Below are positions 13,038-22,883 of a stretch of 64,000 nucleotides of DNA, piece after piece. Source of the stretch: an uncultured Clostridia bacterium (GTDB lineage: Bacteria > Bacillota > Clostridia > TANB77 > CAG-508); assembly GCA_934120675.1 (NCBI GenBank), contig CAKOUU010000001.1:17926-81925 (forward strand). Direction: 5' to 3'. Positions within the stretch are counted from its first letter, which is position 1. Every line of letters begins with the position of its first letter. Below the pieces are notes generated by a model. That model saw only the letters and a list, made by a program, of their open reading frames with translations. It was not told where the DNA came from and ran no database searches. The position numbers and the translations under genes are program-made.

Positions 13038-13160
13038 AAAATTTAATCCCTCTATAGAGAGTACTCCACATAAAGATTTTCTACTTATTGCTGCTTCCTT
13101 CCGGACCTGACAAGGTTCATAGGTCTCTATTGGATTACCCTCTATACAAAGATTAAATTT
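13038..13160 (-). ncRNA. ffs: Signal recognition particle RNA (small, 4.5S-like)
   Basis: The minus strand contains GTCAGGTCCGGAAGGAAGCAGC, the invariant SRP domain IV motif. It is enclosed by a long closing stem (AAATTTAATC...GATTAAATTT). The position upstream of dnaX is typical of Firmicutes. Confidence 0.85.
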
Positions 13161-14048: not shown

Positions 14049-14124
<76 letters not shown>

Positions 14125-14220: not shown

Positions 14221-14256
14221 AAGAAAAAGAATTGCAGTTTAAAACCACAATTCTTT
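14221..14256 (-). terminator. Terminator downstream of the giant surface-protein gene
   Basis: AAGAATTG / CAATTCTT stem followed by a T-run on the minus strand. A second AT-rich hairpin lies just upstream. Confidence 0.5.
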
Positions 14257-14354: not shown

Positions 14355-17300
14355 TTACAAAACAAATTTCTTTATTATTACAACTCCTCCTGCAATAACA
14401 ATTAAACATGAAATTCCAATAATATAGTAAATAACATGGTTATCACTACCCGTTGGTGGAACTATAGTAAGTGTCGCACGACTTATATGATCATATCCAT
14501 TATCATCGCTTTCATGTGTATCATTTGTCAAATCATAGTTACCAGGTGTATAATTCTTCCAACTTCCATTAATCTCTTCACCATAGAATCTACCAACATC
14601 ACTTGTACTACTCAAAATTTCAGTATAATTTTCATACAAGTTATCGTCTGAAGCAGATACAATTTTACTTGCTTCTACCTTCAAATATTGAGTTTCATTC
14701 TGTCGTATTTCTTTATTCCACTCATTCAATAATATGTTTTTTCTATTCTTTATTACATCATATGCTTTTTGAGAAAGTGAATTCTTAATATTAACCCCCT
14801 CTTTTAATTTCCAATCTGGACTACTTTCATTATATGGACTTATTAAGCCCTCATCCATATAGTCAACTATTGAATTTACCGTCAATGAGACAGGTGTATT
14901 TCCTGGTGTTCCATATTTGTAATAACTTTCTGTATTATAATCTGTTTCTGATTTGTTTTTTACGCTTATCGTATATTCAACCTGTAATGTTGAACCTTGA
15001 ATCAAATTATTATCCGCCTCTACTTTTAGTATACCATTTTGTGGATATGTAACATAATTCATAGTAGTTGTTCGAGGATCCCCCTCTACTAGAACCGTTC
15101 CATTTTGTAATGTCAATTTAATATAACTGATTTCTTTATTTACTTCTAAGCTTTGTCTTGGTCTTTCAACTATACCAAATTTAATGTTATAAATACGAGA
15201 TGGTTCTACATAATCATAATTTGTTGTTTGATCTTTTTTGTCTTCTATTGGGAATGTCATTTTTCCTGTAGTAGCTATCATATAATGATTACTTTCGGCA
15301 TCTGAATTATTATCATAGTTATCTTTAACAGTATAAGAATTATATTTCAAATTCTGATTTATTGCACTTCTTCTATTCCAATCGTCAAGCGCAGAAGAGC
15401 AATTTTCCAACTCGGTATCTTGGTACCAGTATTCTGACCTATTTTGTACTGCTTGTTTAAATTTATCATTTGTTATTATTGTAGACTTATAATCTTGTGT
15501 TGTTACATTTTTAGTTATAATCTTACTTTGCATATCACCTTTTTTACCATATGTATATTTTGTAACATATTCCCCAGGAATTATTCCAACAAACTCAAAT
15601 CTTCCATCACTTGTTGTCTTAGTGTCTGCCGGAGTTTTTATAACATTTCCGCCGTCACCTAGTGTATATAGTGTAATTACATTAGCATCACTATAATCAC
15701 TACCATTATCAAAATTAACAAGTTCTACCTTAACATCATTAACGCCATTGTTTCCTTGCTCATATTTTCCATCACCTATACGTTCTTTTGTAAGTGTCAA
15801 GTTTGCTTCATCTTCAAATACTAAACCAGAAATTGACTTTGGAGTTTTTCTTTTAATATGTAAATCAGGTGTACTATCTGTATCGTCCTCATATGTAGAA
15901 ATATCTCCATATGATATATTTTCTGGGGCTGAATCAGTATCTATTCCTGCATATGCATTTTTGTTTGAATCATATGAAGAATAGGCTGTTATTTCTGTTG
16001 TATTGCCAACTACATATACCTCTCCACCATTTGCTTGTAAATCTGCCAAACTAATAATTGCATTTGTATTTAGTTCATATGTTAAATATACAGTTGCCAT
16101 TTTTCCCGGTTCAATAAATGTATCTACTTCCCCTGACTGCCATATATTACGTACCGAATCATTTGTAGTTCCAACTTTACTCCATGTAACCTTTTTGTCA
16201 GTATTTGTTCCATCTTCTATATAAGAATCTATAAATTCAAGTTGTGAATCTGAATAGTTTCTTAATCCTTTAACTTTTACAAATGGTATAGAACTTTCAT
16301 TTTTTAATGAAATTTGGTATGTTAAGTAAATTTTTAATCTAGCTTCATCATCTGGGTTGTCCTTTGTAAATGCAATATATGAGTCATATATTCCTCTTGA
16401 ATATGTAACATCTCTGTAGTTTCCTTGATTATTTTTTACAGATACATTAAATCCATCTAGCAAAGAATCATATGCACTATTTAGTTCATTATTTGGTAAA
16501 CCTGCATTTATATACTTAGCTCTTTGTCCAAAATTATATGTATGCTCATAACCATTTATTGTCATATGCATATTGTTTAAATCAGTTGCAATTGCTATAT
16601 CAGGTTGATTTCTTAATGCGATTCCTAAGTTAACATCTTTTATTTCTGTAACTCCAGCTTTCCACTTATCTAATGAATATTCTGCATCTTTAGTATTTGC
16701 TTTTATTGAGGCCCCTGTTGAACCATCTTGTGGAATAACAGAATTTTTTGTGCTTCCAGCTGTGTATGCTGTATTAGGCACTAAAGATGAACTGTATGTT
16801 CCATTTGTATATACTAATGAATTTGTAATATTTCCATTTTGGTCCAATGAATATCCCTTTGTTCCACTACTATTTTTTTCGTTTCCTCCTGATATAGTAG
16901 AATATGAATTATTAAAATCTGTTCTTAAAGTTGTATTTTCAACTGCCTTTGAACCATTATCTTTATCAAGTTTTTTTGTTACATTTTGGTATTTTAAACC
17001 ATTATATTCAAATTCGATATAATAATCAGATAATTCATCTATTTTTACTTTTCTAAACATGTATTCACCTTGTGAACCTGTCGTTGTTGTTTGAAGTGTT
17101 TCTGATTTTGTATTTTTTAGTCTAACCGTAATACCATTAATTAAAGTTTCATTTCTATCTGCATCATATAAATCGTTTCTTGTTGATTGCTTATTTTTAT
17201 CAATGGTATCTTCCCATACATAACCTGAAACATCTAAATAAATTTGCTTGTTTTTAATGTCTTTTGTTTGTGTCGTTCCATTTACAAGTTGAATTGTATC

Positions 17301-20300
17301 TGGATCTGTTTTTATTTTATAGTATTCCGATAAATTGTCTGGTAAAGCATATTCTTCAATATAATATGTAATTTTATTTTTTCCTTCATATACAGGTAAA
17401 TTATCAACTTCAAATTGTGCATTACTATCTGTTGTTAATGTCTTTGCTTTATTTTTATCTGTTTCACTAAAGTCACTATAACTGTATTTATTAGGTGATG
17501 TTTCTTTTAAATAATATTTTGTGTTATTTTTTAATACATATAGCTTAAACTGTACTCCACTCAGTTTTATTTCTCCTAATGAAGTATTCCCTGTATCTTC
17601 GTCTTTCTTTATTACCTTTAGGTTTCCATATTGTTTGTTTTTTAATTCTGTTTTTTCTGTTTTTCCAGCAGTAACAGTTATATCTTTTTTCTTATCTGAA
17701 TCATCTTGCAATCCTAAATTATAACCACTTGGAGTACTTATTTCTTCCACCTTGTATTTTCCAGCTAACAGATTTGAAAAAGTTACCTTTCCACTACCAT
17801 CTGTTAATTTTTCTTCTGTTCCCCCTCCTGGTTTCGTTAATCTAATTTTAGCATTATTGAGAACAGCCCCTGTATCTTTATCTTTTTTTATTACTTCTAT
17901 TTGTCCAACCAAATCTTTCGAACCAAAATTTGTAGAGGTTGATCCCGCTGAAGTCCAACTATTACTATATGTTCCATTAATTCTCATCCTTTGGCAAGCA
18001 AAACTAGTTCCTTTTAAAGTATAATCTGCTCCTCCATCTGTTTCTTTACAACTTCTTCCATTATGTGTCTTTTTCCCTCCAGCAGCAACTGAACTACAAT
18101 AATATGTTGTCGCTGTTGTACCCCATTCAGAATATCCATATACACCATCTACATCCACAGTAACCTTAACATCATTAATCTTTGTTGTTGAATTATCTAC
18201 ATATACATAAAATGAATATGTACCATTATCAGCAACATTAAAATAATTAATCTTTTCAATTCCACTTGTAACAATATTACCACTTTGAGTATTATCGCTT
18301 CCACCTGCAAAGAAATCATATTTTGTTCCATCTGTCTTTGTTGCCGAACCACTTATAGATATTTTACCACCATAATTCACACTAACTTTATATGGTCCAA
18401 CTCTACAATATCCGTTACTTTGCTGTGATATAGATATGTTATTTGAATCTTGAGTCGAAATTGATATCGACTTTTGTAATGTAGGTCCGCTAGATCCTGT
18501 TTTATTTGAACTTGATCTAAGATATGTATAATAATGAGCCGCTTTACCACACTGTGGATGTCCCGAATCTATACAATAATATCTGTGTGCATGGTTCTCT
18601 TCTCCATCATCAGCATGAAAATTTCTAGTTTTATCAGTAATACAACACACCCTAATATCCAAAGCCAAAACCTGATTAAATATACATCCAGATCCCATTA
18701 TAAGTACGAATAAAAACATTATTGTACCTTTAAATTTATATTTTTTTACCATATATACAGAAAATAATATAACTAATAAAATAATTATAAATATTAAAAT
18801 ATTTCTTACAATACCTGTTTTAACAGAAATTATAACTTGAGCTTGAGAAAAATCATCCTCACTCTCATTTTTATTTCCTTCAGTTGAATCTATATCCTTA
18901 GTTCCGTTAACACTAATGCACTTATTTATTTCTGTTTTATTTGTTAATGTCCCTATAGTATTAGACGTTAAACTTCTTGTTAAATATAATATAATTTTCT
19001 TGCTTTCTCCTGTTTTTATAACAATTCCAGAAATTCCATTATATATAACCATATTAGTTCCTTTTTTAGTCCACCCACTATTTTTGCTACTATCAAAAGT
19101 AAATCCTTCAGGAATATAGTCTACAATTTCATTAACATATCCATCTGCATTACCTTCATTTTTAATTTCCAATTGATACTCTACTTCAATACTTGCTCCA
19201 TCTATCTTTTTAGCCGGTATTTCTACTTTTACTAATTTACTTTCATTGTAATTATATTCTTTTTCTGTTCCATCATAAGTAAGTTTTAAATTCAATATAC
19301 TTTTATTTAGTGACATATCAAATTCTTCTTTTTCTACAAGTCCCAAATCAATATTTTCAATATTAGAATTTTTTACACTTAGTTTATCTGTTAAACCAAC
19401 ACTTTTTTCTTCACCATCAATAGCAACACTTTTTAAAATTGCGTCTGAATTTATTTCTTCTCTAACTCCATTTTTCTTATAATCAGTTATTGCGTATTTT
19501 CCAGTATCAAATTCAAATAAAACCAAATAATTTCCTTTTTTAACATTAGTAAAGTCATATTTACCATTTGAATTTGTTTTTATAATTGTATTAGTTCCAT
19601 CTTTCTTTTTTACAATAGCATTTGAATCTGCATCATATAATTTTATGATTACATCCGATAGCAACTGTTCTCCACTATCTCTTTGACCATTTTTATTTGA
19701 ATCAACCCAAACCGTTCCACTAATATCATATGTTTTATCATCTCCTGGTGTTGGGTTCGGATTATCAGGATTGTCTGGGCTATCTGGATTATCCGGATTA
19801 TCTGGATTATTCGGATTATCCGGGTCTGGTGTTGAATCTTCATCATTTGCAAGCACATATACTTTTATTATATTAGATGTTTTTGATGTAATATAATCTC
19901 CATAAACAGTTGCAAAGTTTGAAACTTCTTTTGTTTCGGTCACAAATCCTGCTTTTGCCTTAATAACAAAATTTAATGTCTTTCCTGCAGGAATTAATAC
20001 CGTTGAATCAAATCCAGTTTTGCCATTAACTTGATATTGTAAATTTATCGTCTCCTTTACTCTATCACATTGTAAATTTTCTTCTTCATTTATATCATAT
20101 TCTGTATATACATGATTACTCTCTTTTAAGACATATTTATCATATTCAGCTGATATTCCTTCCAAACCATCTGGTAAATAATCTTGAACATTAACATATA
20201 CTCTAGTTTTACTCTCATTCTTTACATTAACTTTATATTCAATTTCTTCACCATATTTAAGTTTTTCTCCTTCTTTTTCACAGCTTTGAGTAATTGTCAC

Positions 20301-22883
20301 ATATTGTGGATATGCTGTTCTTATATTCTCATTTGACCAATATTTTTTTGTATTTTCTGCTTGTGCAATCATAGACATTTTAACAATTTGTTCATTTATA
20401 TTTTCATCAAAATTACCTAATGTTAAATTAAATTTAATATTAGCTGTAGCTCCGACAGATAAAGAATCTAACTTGAATTTTAAAATACGATCATTGTAAG
20501 ATTTTTCTATTAGTTTTGAATTATCATCGGTTCCCAAATACTCAATATTATAATTCATTTCTTTTTGAAATTCTATGCTATTTACCTCAATATTTTTTAA
20601 TTCATGATCACTCATATTCTTTATAAAAACATCATAATAAAATGAATCTGGTTGATCTCTACCTATATAAGATTTTACTTCAATATTTAATTCTGCCTTT
20701 TTTACAACATTGTTCAAAGTATCTTCTTGAATTTTATTATTATTTACAACAGTCTTAATTTTATTGCTAATATTATTTTCTATTGTTCCTCCTTCAAGAT
20801 TTTTTACAACAACTTCATAACTTTCTTCTTTTGTTTCCCCAGCTTTCAAATCTGTAATACTATTAAATACATATTCTTTAACATTTTCGTTTTTTACATA
20901 TTCATAGTTTTCCCCCCAATAAGTTCCTCTATCTATTGTGGCGTATGCTGTTCCATCAGGTACCTCACCTGAAATTTTTATTCCTGTAACATCTTTTTGA
21001 GTATTGTTTGTTACTTTAACAGTGTATTTTATTACCTGTTCCTCATATACAGTATCACCATCATTCAATATTTGACTTCCAACTTGTGCCTTTGAATTAA
21101 TTGATATATCAACATTTTCTTCTTCAGCACTTTGTGATAAAACATTTCTTGTATTATCGTTTGTAATTGAATTAATTTTTACTTGTCCTTCTCTTGTTTC
21201 TATTTCTTTTCCATTATTATAATATGTTAAACCAACTGGTACATCATTTGTTTCAGCATCTTTGCTTATAATTACTGTTGCCGGTATAACAACATTAGCC
21301 CCAGCTACAATAGAATTCAAGCAATATTTGTTTTGTGTTCCATTTAATTCAATATTTAAAATTTTATAGCCTTTTTGCTCAATAACTTTTGCATTTTTTA
21401 TATTTAAGCTATTGCCATATAATAATGCTACATCTCCTAAAATTACTTTTTCAACTTCCTGTGGTAATTTTATTTGAATTACAGGGTTACTAAACAATTC
21501 ATATTCTGGACCATTTGTAACTAATGTTGCTGTAAAAGTAACATCATTTTGAACATTATTAGTCCAATTAGCATTATCAACAGATAATTCTACATCTGAC
21601 TTAGCATCTTTAACATCTGCTAAATTGCTATTTTCAAAATTATAAAATTCTACCTGTTTTACTGTTTCAACATCTTTTGATTCTCCAGTACTTTCATCAA
21701 TAACCTTTTCAGTCTTTTTAACATTATTTATGCAAGAAATCTGATTTTTTGTTTCAACTTTTGTAACATCAGCATCTTTCATCGTTTCTTTGATTTGTTT
21801 AACATTTTGAACATTAATTTCACCAATTTTTTCAGGTTTGCTCAATTTAAATGTTAACTCTGTTAATTCATTTTCATAATTAACTGTAACATATCCATTT
21901 TCATCAGTTTCAGAATCCTTATTAATTTCTGTTAAACAATTGCCATCTTTATCGAAAATTTGTAAAGTTCCATTTTCACCAAGTTCATTTAAAACCTCGT
22001 CTTTACTAATTTTTGTACTTTTGTACACTATCTCTTCTGTTTCTATTTCTTTATCTTTATTATTTACAAATAAATTTTTTGTATTTATTTTAACTTCATC
22101 AGCAATTTCTTTGTAACTAACTTGAATGTTTAAATTTTCTGTATATTCAGTTCTATATGTTGTATTATTTTTGACATTTGAACGAATATATCCATTATAA
22201 ATATCACTTGTTGTAACATTTGTAGAAATTAACCCTGATACATTTTCTGTAACTTCAAATTTTTGAGAAATATCTTGAGTTTTAATCGTTTTATTATCAT
22301 CTTTCTTTAAACCAATATATAGTTTTCCAGAAAAATCTAATTCACGTTTTTCATTTTTATCATTATAGCAATTTGAACTATAATATAAATTTATTTGATA
22401 TTCATCTCTTGCATCTGCAACGTTTTCAGAATATACATTTCCATTTTCATCTGCTTTATTTTCAGTAATTAATTTAATTTCTCCATTGTCTTTGTTATAA
22501 GAACAATTAAAATCTTTTCCCTTTTCATCTCCATTTGTTAATTTTGTTGATTTTACAACAACTTCAACTTTTTCTGGATATTCTTCATTGACCTTAGGAG
22601 TTTTTAAAATAACATTTGTTGCTTCTATTGGTACATGTTCTTGTCCATCTTGATATTCAATTCCAGTTTTCAAATTAGCTTGAACCATTAATCCAGGAGT
22701 ATCTCCAACTTTGTAATTAACATACTTCTCTAGATTTAATTCATATATTGCATTAATTTTTGACTCATCTATAATACTTTGCACTGCATCTATTGCTGTA
22801 GATATTACAAGCATTAATGAACTATTAATTAGCATCATCATTATAACTAAAATTGAAATTATTTTTGCAATTAGATTTTTCAT
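14355..22883 (-). CDS. Giant cell-surface protein (2842 aa): DUF11-like and SdrD-B/Cna-B/SpaA-like repeats, two sorting-signal-like segments
   Basis: Signal peptide, TIGR01451-like repeats (VKYTVKVTNNTQKDVTGIKISGEVPDGT), SdrD-B-like GTVWVDSNKNGQRDSGE, and SpaA/Cna-B-like GQIEVIKKDKDTGAVLNNAKIRLT...GKYKVEEISTPSGY. The C-terminus is PPTG plus a TM segment plus KK. An internal SVKTG plus TM plus KKYK is followed by a signal-peptide-like segment. Confidence 0.85.
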   Translation of the reverse strand: MKNLIAKIISILVIMMMLINSSLMLVISTAIDAVQSIIDESKINAIYELNLEKYVNYKVGDTPGLMVQANLKTGIEYQDGQEHVPIEATNVILKTPKVNEEYPEKVEVVVKSTKLTNGDEKGKDFNCSYNKDNGEIKLITENKADENGNVYSENVADARDEYQINLYYSSNCYNDKNEKRELDFSGKLYIGLKKDDNKTIKTQDISQKFEVTENVSGLISTNVTTSDIYNGYIRSNVKNNTTYRTEYTENLNIQVSYKEIADEVKINTKNLFVNNKDKEIETEEIVYKSTKISKDEVLNELGENGTLQIFDKDGNCLTEINKDSETDENGYVTVNYENELTELTFKLSKPEKIGEINVQNVKQIKETMKDADVTKVETKNQISCINNVKKTEKVIDESTGESKDVETVKQVEFYNFENSNLADVKDAKSDVELSVDNANWTNNVQNDVTFTATLVTNGPEYELFSNPVIQIKLPQEVEKVILGDVALLYGNSLNIKNAKVIEQKGYKILNIELNGTQNKYCLNSIVAGANVVIPATVIISKDAETNDVPVGLTYYNNGKEIETREGQVKINSITNDNTRNVLSQSAEEENVDISINSKAQVGSQILNDGDTVYEEQVIKYTVKVTNNTQKDVTGIKISGEVPDGTAYATIDRGTYWGENYEYVKNENVKEYVFNSITDLKAGETKEESYEVVVKNLEGGTIENNISNKIKTVVNNNKIQEDTLNNVVKKAELNIEVKSYIGRDQPDSFYYDVFIKNMSDHELKNIEVNSIEFQKEMNYNIEYLGTDDNSKLIEKSYNDRILKFKLDSLSVGATANIKFNLTLGNFDENINEQIVKMSMIAQAENTKKYWSNENIRTAYPQYVTITQSCEKEGEKLKYGEEIEYKVNVKNESKTRVYVNVQDYLPDGLEGISAEYDKYVLKESNHVYTEYDINEEENLQCDRVKETINLQYQVNGKTGFDSTVLIPAGKTLNFVIKAKAGFVTETKEVSNFATVYGDYITSKTSNIIKVYVLANDEDSTPDPDNPNNPDNPDNPDSPDNPDNPNPTPGDDKTYDISGTVWVDSNKNGQRDSGEQLLSDVIIKLYDADSNAIVKKKDGTNTIIKTNSNGKYDFTNVKKGNYLVLFEFDTGKYAITDYKKNGVREEINSDAILKSVAIDGEEKSVGLTDKLSVKNSNIENIDLGLVEKEEFDMSLNKSILNLKLTYDGTEKEYNYNESKLVKVEIPAKKIDGASIEVEYQLEIKNEGNADGYVNEIVDYIPEGFTFDSSKNSGWTKKGTNMVIYNGISGIVIKTGESKKIILYLTRSLTSNTIGTLTNKTEINKCISVNGTKDIDSTEGNKNESEDDFSQAQVIISVKTGIVRNILIFIIILLVILFSVYMVKKYKFKGTIMFLFVLIMGSGCIFNQVLALDIRVCCITDKTRNFHADDGEENHAHRYYCIDSGHPQCGKAAHYYTYLRSSSNKTGSSGPTLQKSISISTQDSNNISISQQSNGYCRVGPYKVSVNYGGKISISGSATKTDGTKYDFFAGGSDNTQSGNIVTSGIEKINYFNVADNGTYSFYVYVDNSTTKINDVKVTVDVDGVYGYSEWGTTATTYYCSSVAAGGKKTHNGRSCKETDGGADYTLKGTSFACQRMRINGTYSNSWTSAGSTSTNFGSKDLVGQIEVIKKDKDTGAVLNNAKIRLTKPGGGTEEKLTDGSGKVTFSNLLAGKYKVEEISTPSGYNLGLQDDSDKKKDITVTAGKTEKTELKNKQYGNLKVIKKDEDTGNTSLGEIKLSGVQFKLYVLKNNTKYYLKETSPNKYSYSDFSETDKNKAKTLTTDSNAQFEVDNLPVYEGKNKITYYIEEYALPDNLSEYYKIKTDPDTIQLVNGTTQTKDIKNKQIYLDVSGYVWEDTIDKNKQSTRNDLYDADRNETLINGITVRLKNTKSETLQTTTTGSQGEYMFRKVKIDELSDYYIEFEYNGLKYQNVTKKLDKDNGSKAVENTTLRTDFNNSYSTISGGNEKNSSGTKGYSLDQNGNITNSLVYTNGTYSSSLVPNTAYTAGSTKNSVIPQDGSTGASIKANTKDAEYSLDKWKAGVTEIKDVNLGIALRNQPDIAIATDLNNMHMTINGYEHTYNFGQRAKYINAGLPNNELNSAYDSLLDGFNVSVKNNQGNYRDVTYSRGIYDSYIAFTKDNPDDEARLKIYLTYQISLKNESSIPFVKVKGLRNYSDSQLEFIDSYIEDGTNTDKKVTWSKVGTTNDSVRNIWQSGEVDTFIEPGKMATVYLTYELNTNAIISLADLQANGGEVYVVGNTTEITAYSSYDSNKNAYAGIDTDSAPENISYGDISTYEDDTDSTPDLHIKRKTPKSISGLVFEDEANLTLTKERIGDGKYEQGNNGVNDVKVELVNFDNGSDYSDANVITLYTLGDGGNVIKTPADTKTTSDGRFEFVGIIPGEYVTKYTYGKKGDMQSKIITKNVTTQDYKSTIITNDKFKQAVQNRSEYWYQDTELENCSSALDDWNRRSAINQNLKYNSYTVKDNYDNNSDAESNHYMIATTGKMTFPIEDKKDQTTNYDYVEPSRIYNIKFGIVERPRQSLEVNKEISYIKLTLQNGTVLVEGDPRTTTMNYVTYPQNGILKVEADNNLIQGSTLQVEYTISVKNKSETDYNTESYYKYGTPGNTPVSLTVNSIVDYMDEGLISPYNESSPDWKLKEGVNIKNSLSQKAYDVIKNRKNILLNEWNKEIRQNETQYLKVEASKIVSASDDNLYENYTEILSSTSDVGRFYGEEINGSWKNYTPGNYDLTNDTHESDDNGYDHISRATLTIVPPTGSDNHVIYYIIGISCLIVIAGGVVIIKKFVL
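19751..19832 (-). repeat. 9-nt tandem coding repeat (PDN/PDS linker)
   Basis: Plus-strand units cggattatc / tggattatc encode PDPDNPNNPDNPDNPDSPDNPDNPNPTP. Confidence 0.8.

Follow-up and report, generated by a model that had tools for sequence, protein, structure and literature searches.

Whether two surface proteins can be written as one polypeptide and still reach the cell wall separately is the question raised by a giant open reading frame (ORF) in the 64,000-nucleotide stretch analysed here (the window), which belongs to the genome of an uncultured gut Clostridia bacterium (1.49 Mb, 38 contigs, 27% GC). The ORF listing and the translation of the window give 2842 codons on the minus strand with no stop inside (Table 1), and the ATG at 22883 is preceded by a strong Shine-Dalgarno (SD) sequence, TAGGAGGG. 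A sequence-only reading of this DNA had described, in the middle of the ORF, an SVKTG pentapeptide followed by a transmembrane segment (TM), a basic loop and a signal peptide, and translation confirmed this junction exactly. It had explained the junction by the fusion of two adjacent adhesin genes, by a TM hairpin in a polypeptide processed into two wall-anchored products, or by an assembly error. The present analysis leaves hardly any doubt that the gene is real and that its fusion is ancient and stably inherited, and its product is probably a precursor that would be cut by sortase and signal peptidase into two wall-anchored proteins.

The joint inside the frame

The first sorting signal of the giant protein is not C-terminal, as 1485 in-frame residues follow the SVKTG signal. 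The pentapeptide is non-canonical and the nearest published type of motif is the SrtB motif NVQTG of C. difficile. Its threonine and glycine are invariant across 14 aligned orthologs, and TG was present at every junction found in 72 fused database relatives. The second half begins with the features of a signal peptide, namely the basic KKYKFK, the h-region GTIMFLFVLIMGSGCIF and the ending NQVLA/LD (here and below a slash marks a predicted cleavage site), and it closes with a sorting signal of its own, VPPTG-TM-KKFVL. The short KKYKFK stretch appears to be used twice, giving the sorting signal its charged tail and the second signal peptide its n-region.

The elements of the joint were measured over 47 distinct junction sequences. 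The first hydrophobic segment (TM1) has an uncharged run with a median of 22 residues (range 18-23), compared with 21 for the TM of the C-terminal anchor. The second hydrophobic segment has a median of 16 (range 11-19), and the polar c-region behind it has A or G as its last residue, for example NQVLA/L, QTFA/G, NTNQA/K, SQVAA/S, NVYG/F and TTFA/Q; in the N-terminal signal peptide, the median of the h-region is 12. The loop between the two segments is 6-18 residues long, with a median of 6 K/R and 0 D/E. Moreover, the internal motif, TM and tail are indistinguishable from those of stand-alone paralogs that end at this point and share the same [SG][IVL]xTG. Finally, the relative P0005 matches the window protein through the hairpin and diverges directly after the predicted signal-peptidase site, the head that follows being replaced outright.

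These properties also bear on the idea that the hairpin is kept, in which case the product would be a single membrane-stitched adhesin of about 310 kDa with an uncut or partly cut internal xxxTG, or with a second half tethered both by a signal anchor that stays uncleaved and by its C-terminal wall link. The hairpin is indeed common to all fused members, the second hydrophobic segment has in some of them an uncharged run of 17-19 residues, and cleavage has so far been deduced from sequence. However, the agreement of motif, TM length and basic tail with paralogs that end there, the invariant TG and a second segment that is on average shorter than a TM and runs into a polar c-region ending in A/G all argue against a retained hairpin. 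The same is true of the point at which P0005 diverges and of a split gene pair described below, where the equivalent element is plainly an N-terminal signal peptide. A retained hairpin is thus considered unlikely, and the cleaved precursor remains the preferred interpretation.

A chance control was run on the 569 ORFs of at least 300 aa in the same genome. The pattern of xxxTG, TM, basic loop and second hydrophobic segment gave six matches, of which four were ordinary polytopic membrane proteins; the other two were the giant ORF itself and a second true fused pair. In parallel, a random stretch of 55 codons was calculated to be open with a probability of about 0.008 at 27% GC, and all 47 distinct junctions (47/47) are open.

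Inheritance and origin of the fused gene

Such a frame could have come about if a stop or a frameshift between two ordinary genes had been lost, through a fault of sequencing or assembly or through a recent accident of the pseudogene kind, and the genome is a metagenome-assembled draft of 38 contigs. This explanation was rejected. A database search with residues 1228-1527 found P0003 and P0004, which come from Logan and ENA assemblies, are both 2842 aa long, show 98% identity over that region and have an identical hairpin. The P0003 cluster alone counts 48 member sequences, so that the same 2842-aa ORF is present in independent assemblies. The junction is also open in the fused layout of at least 13 species of the genus, whose proteins align end to end with the window protein through the junction at 26-53% identity, and the fused members all belong to one clade. 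An artefact is therefore extremely improbable.

The question whether relatives carry one gene or two, left by the sequence-only reading to a comparison of orthologs, is answered by this fused layout and by a split paralog on contig C15 of the same genome. In a six-frame search of 36 same-genus genomes, matches cross the junction without a stop in open frames of 2341-3391 aa and longer. Twenty matching regions were retrieved from same-genus genomes for inspection, and 13 further fused genes were found in 12 species (G011, G035, G025, G005, G029, G032, G002, G016, G034, G020, G003 with two, and G007). These 13 genes share one plan. A signal peptide at the N-terminus is followed by an internal [SG][IVL]xTG with its TM, then by a loop rich in K/R and a second hydrophobic stretch whose last residue is small, and the protein closes with PxTG, a TM and a KK tail. 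Their ORFs measure 2341 to more than 5360 aa. The two fused genes of G003 reach 4630 and >5360 aa, and their hairpins lie at residues 1494 and 1991. A scan of genome contigs with the single protein gave only two relatives, both metagenome-assembled genomes labelled 'uncultured Clostridia bacterium', one of them from a Hadza sample.

The junction was found in 72 of 77 database clusters of 2300 aa or more. Their internal motifs were SVKTG (57), SISTG (6), SIETG (3), GVSTG (2) and four singletons, and their terminal motifs VPSTG (49), TPPTG (5), VPPTG (3), IPSTG (3), LPPTG (3) and others. Some fused relatives carry a dockerin (PF00404) or a ricin-type lectin domain (PF14200, PF00652), as listed by Pfam per whole protein and not by position (P0013, P0029, P0033, P0048, P0053, P0056, P0063, P0066, P0067, P0069 and P0121). 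The dockerin-bearing relatives, together with cohesin-LPXTG proteins of the genus, hint at a cohesin-dockerin assembly of surface adhesins.

Four orthologs (L020, L022, L023 and L016) are syntenic with the window and lie between the PP-loop ATPase gene and tm250/dnaX. In the closest one, L020 of G032, the products of the flanking UDPGP, PGM, PP-loop, tm250, dnaX and recR genes are 94-99.6% identical, whereas the giant protein is 53% identical. Because of this difference, the locus seems to be very fast-evolving or recombining, with the fused joint being kept; judged from these alignments, it is probably a surface-protein locus that is hypervariable or recombines between conserved flanks. In L015, L018, L021, L025, L026, L027 and L034, the fused gene usually has a further C-type gene beside it, which stands alone, is 1200-1580 aa long and encodes a signal peptide and a PxTG anchor of its own.

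The split paralogous pair of contig C15 illustrates what the two genes may have looked like before their fusion. Its N-type gene ends with ISIRTG-TM-RKLIINRNLI and a stop. After 17 nt that contain the SD AAAGGAGGG, the C-type gene begins in another frame with MKEKTKIFMLAF, followed further on by IADA/S, and it ends with IPSTG-TM-KKFAIDKK. A maximum-likelihood tree was built from the 260-residue domain ahead of the motif in 100 distinct sequences. All 51 fused members (51/51) fell on one side of a single branch, supported at 85 in the Shimodaira-Hasegawa-like approximate likelihood ratio test (SH-aLRT), and none of 500 label shuffles required as few changes; split genes of the C15 type are in the neighbouring clade. 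Since the fused members are all in one clade, the fusion would be single and old and would have been followed by deep divergence. This points to one old event in which two neighbouring genes for surface proteins were joined in frame, and the split pair and the single clade support the earlier proposal of an adhesin gene fusion. The upstream ancestor would have been an N-type DUF11/SdrD-B adhesin ending in a [SG][IVL]xTG sorting signal, and the downstream one a SpaA/Cna-B adhesin of the C-type, with a signal peptide of its own and a PxTG sorting signal.

It could also be that the frame is continuous and the genes are functionally two, the second half being translated from an internal start at M1378 or M1389, perhaps behind an internal promoter, with an incidental read-through. 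ATG codons are found at 18752 (M1378) and 18719 (M1389), the latter behind a weak AAAGGT, and a promoter-like match lies at 18811-18784. However, SD:anti-SD duplex energies are -9 to -12 kcal/mol at true starts and -14.9 kcal/mol at the split C-type gene of C15, as against -4.0 to +0.6 kcal/mol for the best internal candidate start in 14 fused genes. None of the fused genes has a ribosome-binding site (RBS) at these places, and four of them (L015, L021, L023 and L034) have no ATG, GTG or TTG at all ahead of the second hydrophobic segment, which contradicts the start that the sequence-only reading had suggested for the second half. Promoter-like matches were at or below chance (58 found, 65 expected), the scan being uninformative in AT-rich DNA. 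The frame also stays open over the 47 junctions although their loops vary in length from 6 to 18 residues, which would be needless if the halves were translated separately. A search for terminators found none between the two halves. Because the internal RBS has been lost and several fused genes lack a usable start, the second half would be made only within the long chain. The data point to a single translation product from the first start, and an independently translated second half is very unlikely.

Proposed export and processing, and the sortases

The pathway that would follow from this layout starts with translation of the whole 2842-residue chain from one start. The N-terminal signal peptide would launch Sec export of the first half until the hydrophobic segment behind SVKTG halts the transfer, and the K-rich loop would stay in the cytoplasm, as the positive-inside rule predicts. 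The second hydrophobic segment would then re-initiate export as an internal signal peptide, and the last TM would halt transfer again with its KK inside. Sortase could cut between T and G of SVKTG, anchoring the first half in the wall, and likewise between T and G of VPPTG, anchoring the second half there; signal peptidase I could cut after VLA (A1407). Two adhesins of about 150 kDa, each linked to the wall, would result, and about 50 residues would stay behind in the membrane as a hairpin. In addition, the fused gene would impose an obligatory 1:1 co-production of both proteins at one translocon.

We infer the three cuts from the properties of the junction elements, the invariant TG, the likeness to stand-alone paralogs and the point at which P0005 diverges. 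A sorting signal has its charged tail on the cytoplasmic side, where a signal peptide has its n-region, so that the loss of a stop and a spacer would yield a correctly oriented hairpin, and for this reason the fusion was probably tolerated or favoured. A natural precursor is the most likely interpretation because the fusion is inherited across many species. Processing of one hairpin-forming polypeptide into two wall-anchored products is thus the best supported of the earlier explanations, with its cleavages predicted.

Several points weigh against this interpretation. Cleavage by sortase and by signal peptidase is read from sequence features, and recognition of SVKTG-type motifs by sortase is likewise a prediction. 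The second hydrophobic segments of 17-19 residues might persist as signal anchors. The promoter-like match at 18811-18784 is at chance level, and an internal transcript is still conceivable. The support for the fused clade is moderate (SH-aLRT 85 in a quick search). Finally, the sortases of the genome score below every NCBIfam class cut-off and neither of them adjoins the giant gene.

No sortase is encoded in the 64,000-nt window, as the sequence-only reading had noted, and the genome carries two sortase genes (PF04203), both on contig C3. The search of the genome for class B or C sortases therefore yielded two enzymes but no class assignment: they score 48-71 bits compared with a class C cut-off of 160. 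Sortases were found in 41 of the 41 genus genomes searched. Besides four or five classical LPxTG proteins, the genome has a second group of substrates with the motifs SVKTG, SISTG, SIRTG, VPPTG and IPSTG, and KKF-type tails are common to several of them. In C. difficile, the single sortase SrtB has (S/P)PxTG and NVQTG as motifs (PMC4155245). The predicted non-LPxTG motifs of the present genome resemble these SrtB motifs. On contig C3 (C3:35303-37238), a gene for a 210-aa sortase is followed by one for a 452-aa exported protein that ends in KKLPVTGM and a stop, thus with an LPVTG but neither TM nor tail; it may be a truncated or frameshifted substrate.

The second fused pair of the same genome was found by the pattern scan outside the window (C8:9993-13058, minus strand, equal to L037:1993-5058, minus strand). 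It is unrelated to the first and joins a sorting signal in frame to a signal peptide. It consists of a signal peptide, a cohesin (PF00963), LPKTG, a TM, KSKKCGKT, MMMLIICGILISQSTVFA with the predicted cut STVFA/ASE, a dockerin (PF00404) and a Sortilin/BNR propeller, and it has no C-terminal anchor. Its ortholog in G016 (L040) is likewise fused. The same arrangement of cohesin, motif, TM, basic stretch, signal and dockerin is present, with open frames of 2911 and 2894 aa, in G057 and G060 (L041 and L045), two genomes from another family of the order. In other genomes, for example at G017:C31, this type of pair is apparently split.

The two predicted products of the C8 pair are binding partners, and for this reason the pair supports the idea of a stoichiometric coupling of partners by such joints. 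A wider view can be proposed, in which Sec translocon, sortase and signal peptidase would form a general system for resolving polyproteins in this lineage of gut Clostridia with small genomes, such that pairs of surface-protein genes collapse to single ORFs and partner products are delivered 1:1 at one site. In a bolder form, the halves of the giant adhesin would assemble into a two-part fibre. The cohesin-LPKTG/dockerin pair and the presence of its layout in another family fit the general system, a view that is nevertheless tentative and on balance rather doubtful. The fibre might be held by non-covalent association or by a sortase bond from Thr1356 to a lysine in the second half. That sortase would instead join the first half to the newly exposed N-terminus of the second was considered unlikely, since orthologs differ in this residue (L, G, K, S, F, Q, W, A, E, M).

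Gene architecture and known systems

The features of the giant gene are collected in Table 1.

Table 1. Positions in the window of the giant gene and its parts.
Feature	Position	Strand	Residues	Description	Basis
Whole precursor gene	14355..22883	-	1-2842	2842 codons and stop	ORF listing and translation
N-terminal signal peptide	22785..22883	-	about 1-33	MKNLIAK-IISILVIMMMLI-NSSLMLVISTAIDA; cleavage site approximate	read from the sequence
First passenger	18828..22784	-	about 34-1352	DUF11 repeats, PDN linker, SdrD B-like domain, conserved last domain	Pfam, alignment, PDB SdrD match
Internal sortase-type pentapeptide	18813..18827	-	1353-1357	SVKTG	
TM1, hydrophobic segment of the internal sorting signal	18747..18812	-	1358-1379	IVRNILIFIIILLVILFSVYMV, 22 residues; predicted stop-transfer role	
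Basic cytoplasmic loop	18729..18746	-	1380-1385	KKYKFK	
Internal signal-peptide-like h-/c-region	18663..18728	-	1386-1407	GTIMFLFVLIMGSGCIFNQVLA; GTIMFLFVLIMGSGCIF-NQVLA; predicted signal peptidase I site VLA/LD	
Second passenger	14463..18662	-	1408-2807	Cys-containing all-beta head, SpaA/Cna-B-type domains, SdrD_B/CarboxypepD_reg-like domains	
C-terminal sorting signal	14358..14462	-	VPPTG at 2808-2812	VPPTG, TM, KKFVL tail	
Terminator-like hairpin after the gene	14226..14256	-			

In the first half, Pfam recognizes DUF11 three times and SdrD_B, and the conserved last domain ends with EDDFSQAQVII. The linker PDNPDNPDN, between the DUF11 region and the SdrD-B-like domain, is encoded by a 9-nt repeat (window 19751-19832), and P0005 has another Pro-rich linker at its position. 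In the second half, Pfam finds SpaA twice (Cna-B-type), SdrD_B and CarboxypepD_reg, and an E-box is located at 1710. A PDB sequence search gave SdrD (one match) and a collagen-adhesin Cna-B-like domain (one match) as its sole matches, and a search of NCBIfam returned no family for either half except the DUF11 repeat. The head of the second half was modelled with AlphaFold2 as an all-beta structure (265 aa, mean predicted local distance difference test score 73.7). A Foldseek search of this model against the PDB gave no significant match, the best being the B. anthracis TIE protein (E 0.02, TM 0.24, the latter a structural score). This non-significant match leaves standing the idea that the modelled head may be of thioester type.

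The neighbours of the giant gene have housekeeping functions. Upstream are genes for a UDPGP protein, a phosphoglucomutase and a PP-loop ATPase. Downstream are a tRNA, a 250-aa membrane protein (tm250), the signal recognition particle (SRP) RNA, dnaX, ybaB and recR. The small SRP RNA (61 bits) and the tRNA, at 13050-13146 and 14052-14124 on the minus strand respectively, lie between the giant gene and dnaX.

If the proposed processing is true, a sorting signal and a signal peptide together make a self-resolving joint between two full-size wall-anchored proteins, and two ubiquitous envelope enzymes double as polyprotein processors. For genome annotation, it means that giant 'adhesins' with an internal TM pair may be two products. 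It also touches on the evolution of operons into fused genes where genomes are reduced, and it offers a natural design for the stoichiometric co-display of two proteins on Gram-positive surfaces.

Full-text literature searches brought up no account of one sortase substrate being joined to another through its sorting signal and a second signal peptide, and their matches for 'second LPXTG' were unrelated. Each half of the giant protein resembles canonical sortase substrates with Cna-B/SpaA, SdrD-B or DUF11 domains, of the type of the microbial surface components recognizing adhesive matrix molecules, as well as the SrtB substrates of C. difficile, in having a signal peptide, Ig-like stalk domains and a pentapeptide-TM-basic tail. 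Unlike in these proteins, the two are here in one polypeptide and the first sorting signal is internal. With sortase-assembled pilus operons, the locus shares SpaA-fold domains, an E-box and two sorting motifs, but it has neither a YPKN pilin motif nor an adjacent sortase nor a sortase scoring as class C. A pilin or pilus function was rejected on the absence of YPK and PKN from the protein, its housekeeping neighbours and sortases below the class C cut-off.

The alternation of stop-transfer and internal signals and the use of a host membrane peptidase recall the polyproteins of eukaryotic viruses, such as those of pestiviruses with their internal signal peptides (PMC3113308), as an analogy of mechanism only. 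In contrast to these, the giant gene is a bacterial chromosomal gene and one type of cut would be made by sortase, which as a transpeptidase also joins the product to the wall.

The closest published precedent is the N-terminal anchor of the streptococcal zinc metalloproteases IgA1 protease/ZmpA, ZmpB, ZmpC and ZmpD. In pneumococcal Zmp proteases, an internal LPXTG is followed by two hydrophobic segments and anchoring is sortase-dependent (PMC3518915, PMC13604702). They have a signal peptide, a non-C-terminal LPXTG-type motif, the two hydrophobic segments and a second signal-peptidase site (PMC3518915); they are depleted in a sortase A knockout, and their retention at the surface depends on sortase A (PMC13604702). 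The giant gene has this whole set of anchor features, with a sorting signal leading straight into a second export signal and the same membrane logic. The two systems nevertheless differ in several respects. The segment that precedes the Zmp motif lies in the N-terminal region, before the bulk of the protein, whereas in the giant gene it is a complete multi-domain adhesin of 1350 residues. The Zmp passenger is an HEXXH metalloprotease, whereas the second part of the giant protein bears its own, different signal, VPPTG, and neither an HEXXH in its 2842 residues nor a peptidase domain in Pfam was found. The motifs are SVKTG and PxTG instead of LPXTG, there is no sequence homology, and a fusion origin is documented for the giant gene by its split two-gene paralog. 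The giant gene would thus function like a Zmp anchor and is not a member of the Zmp family.

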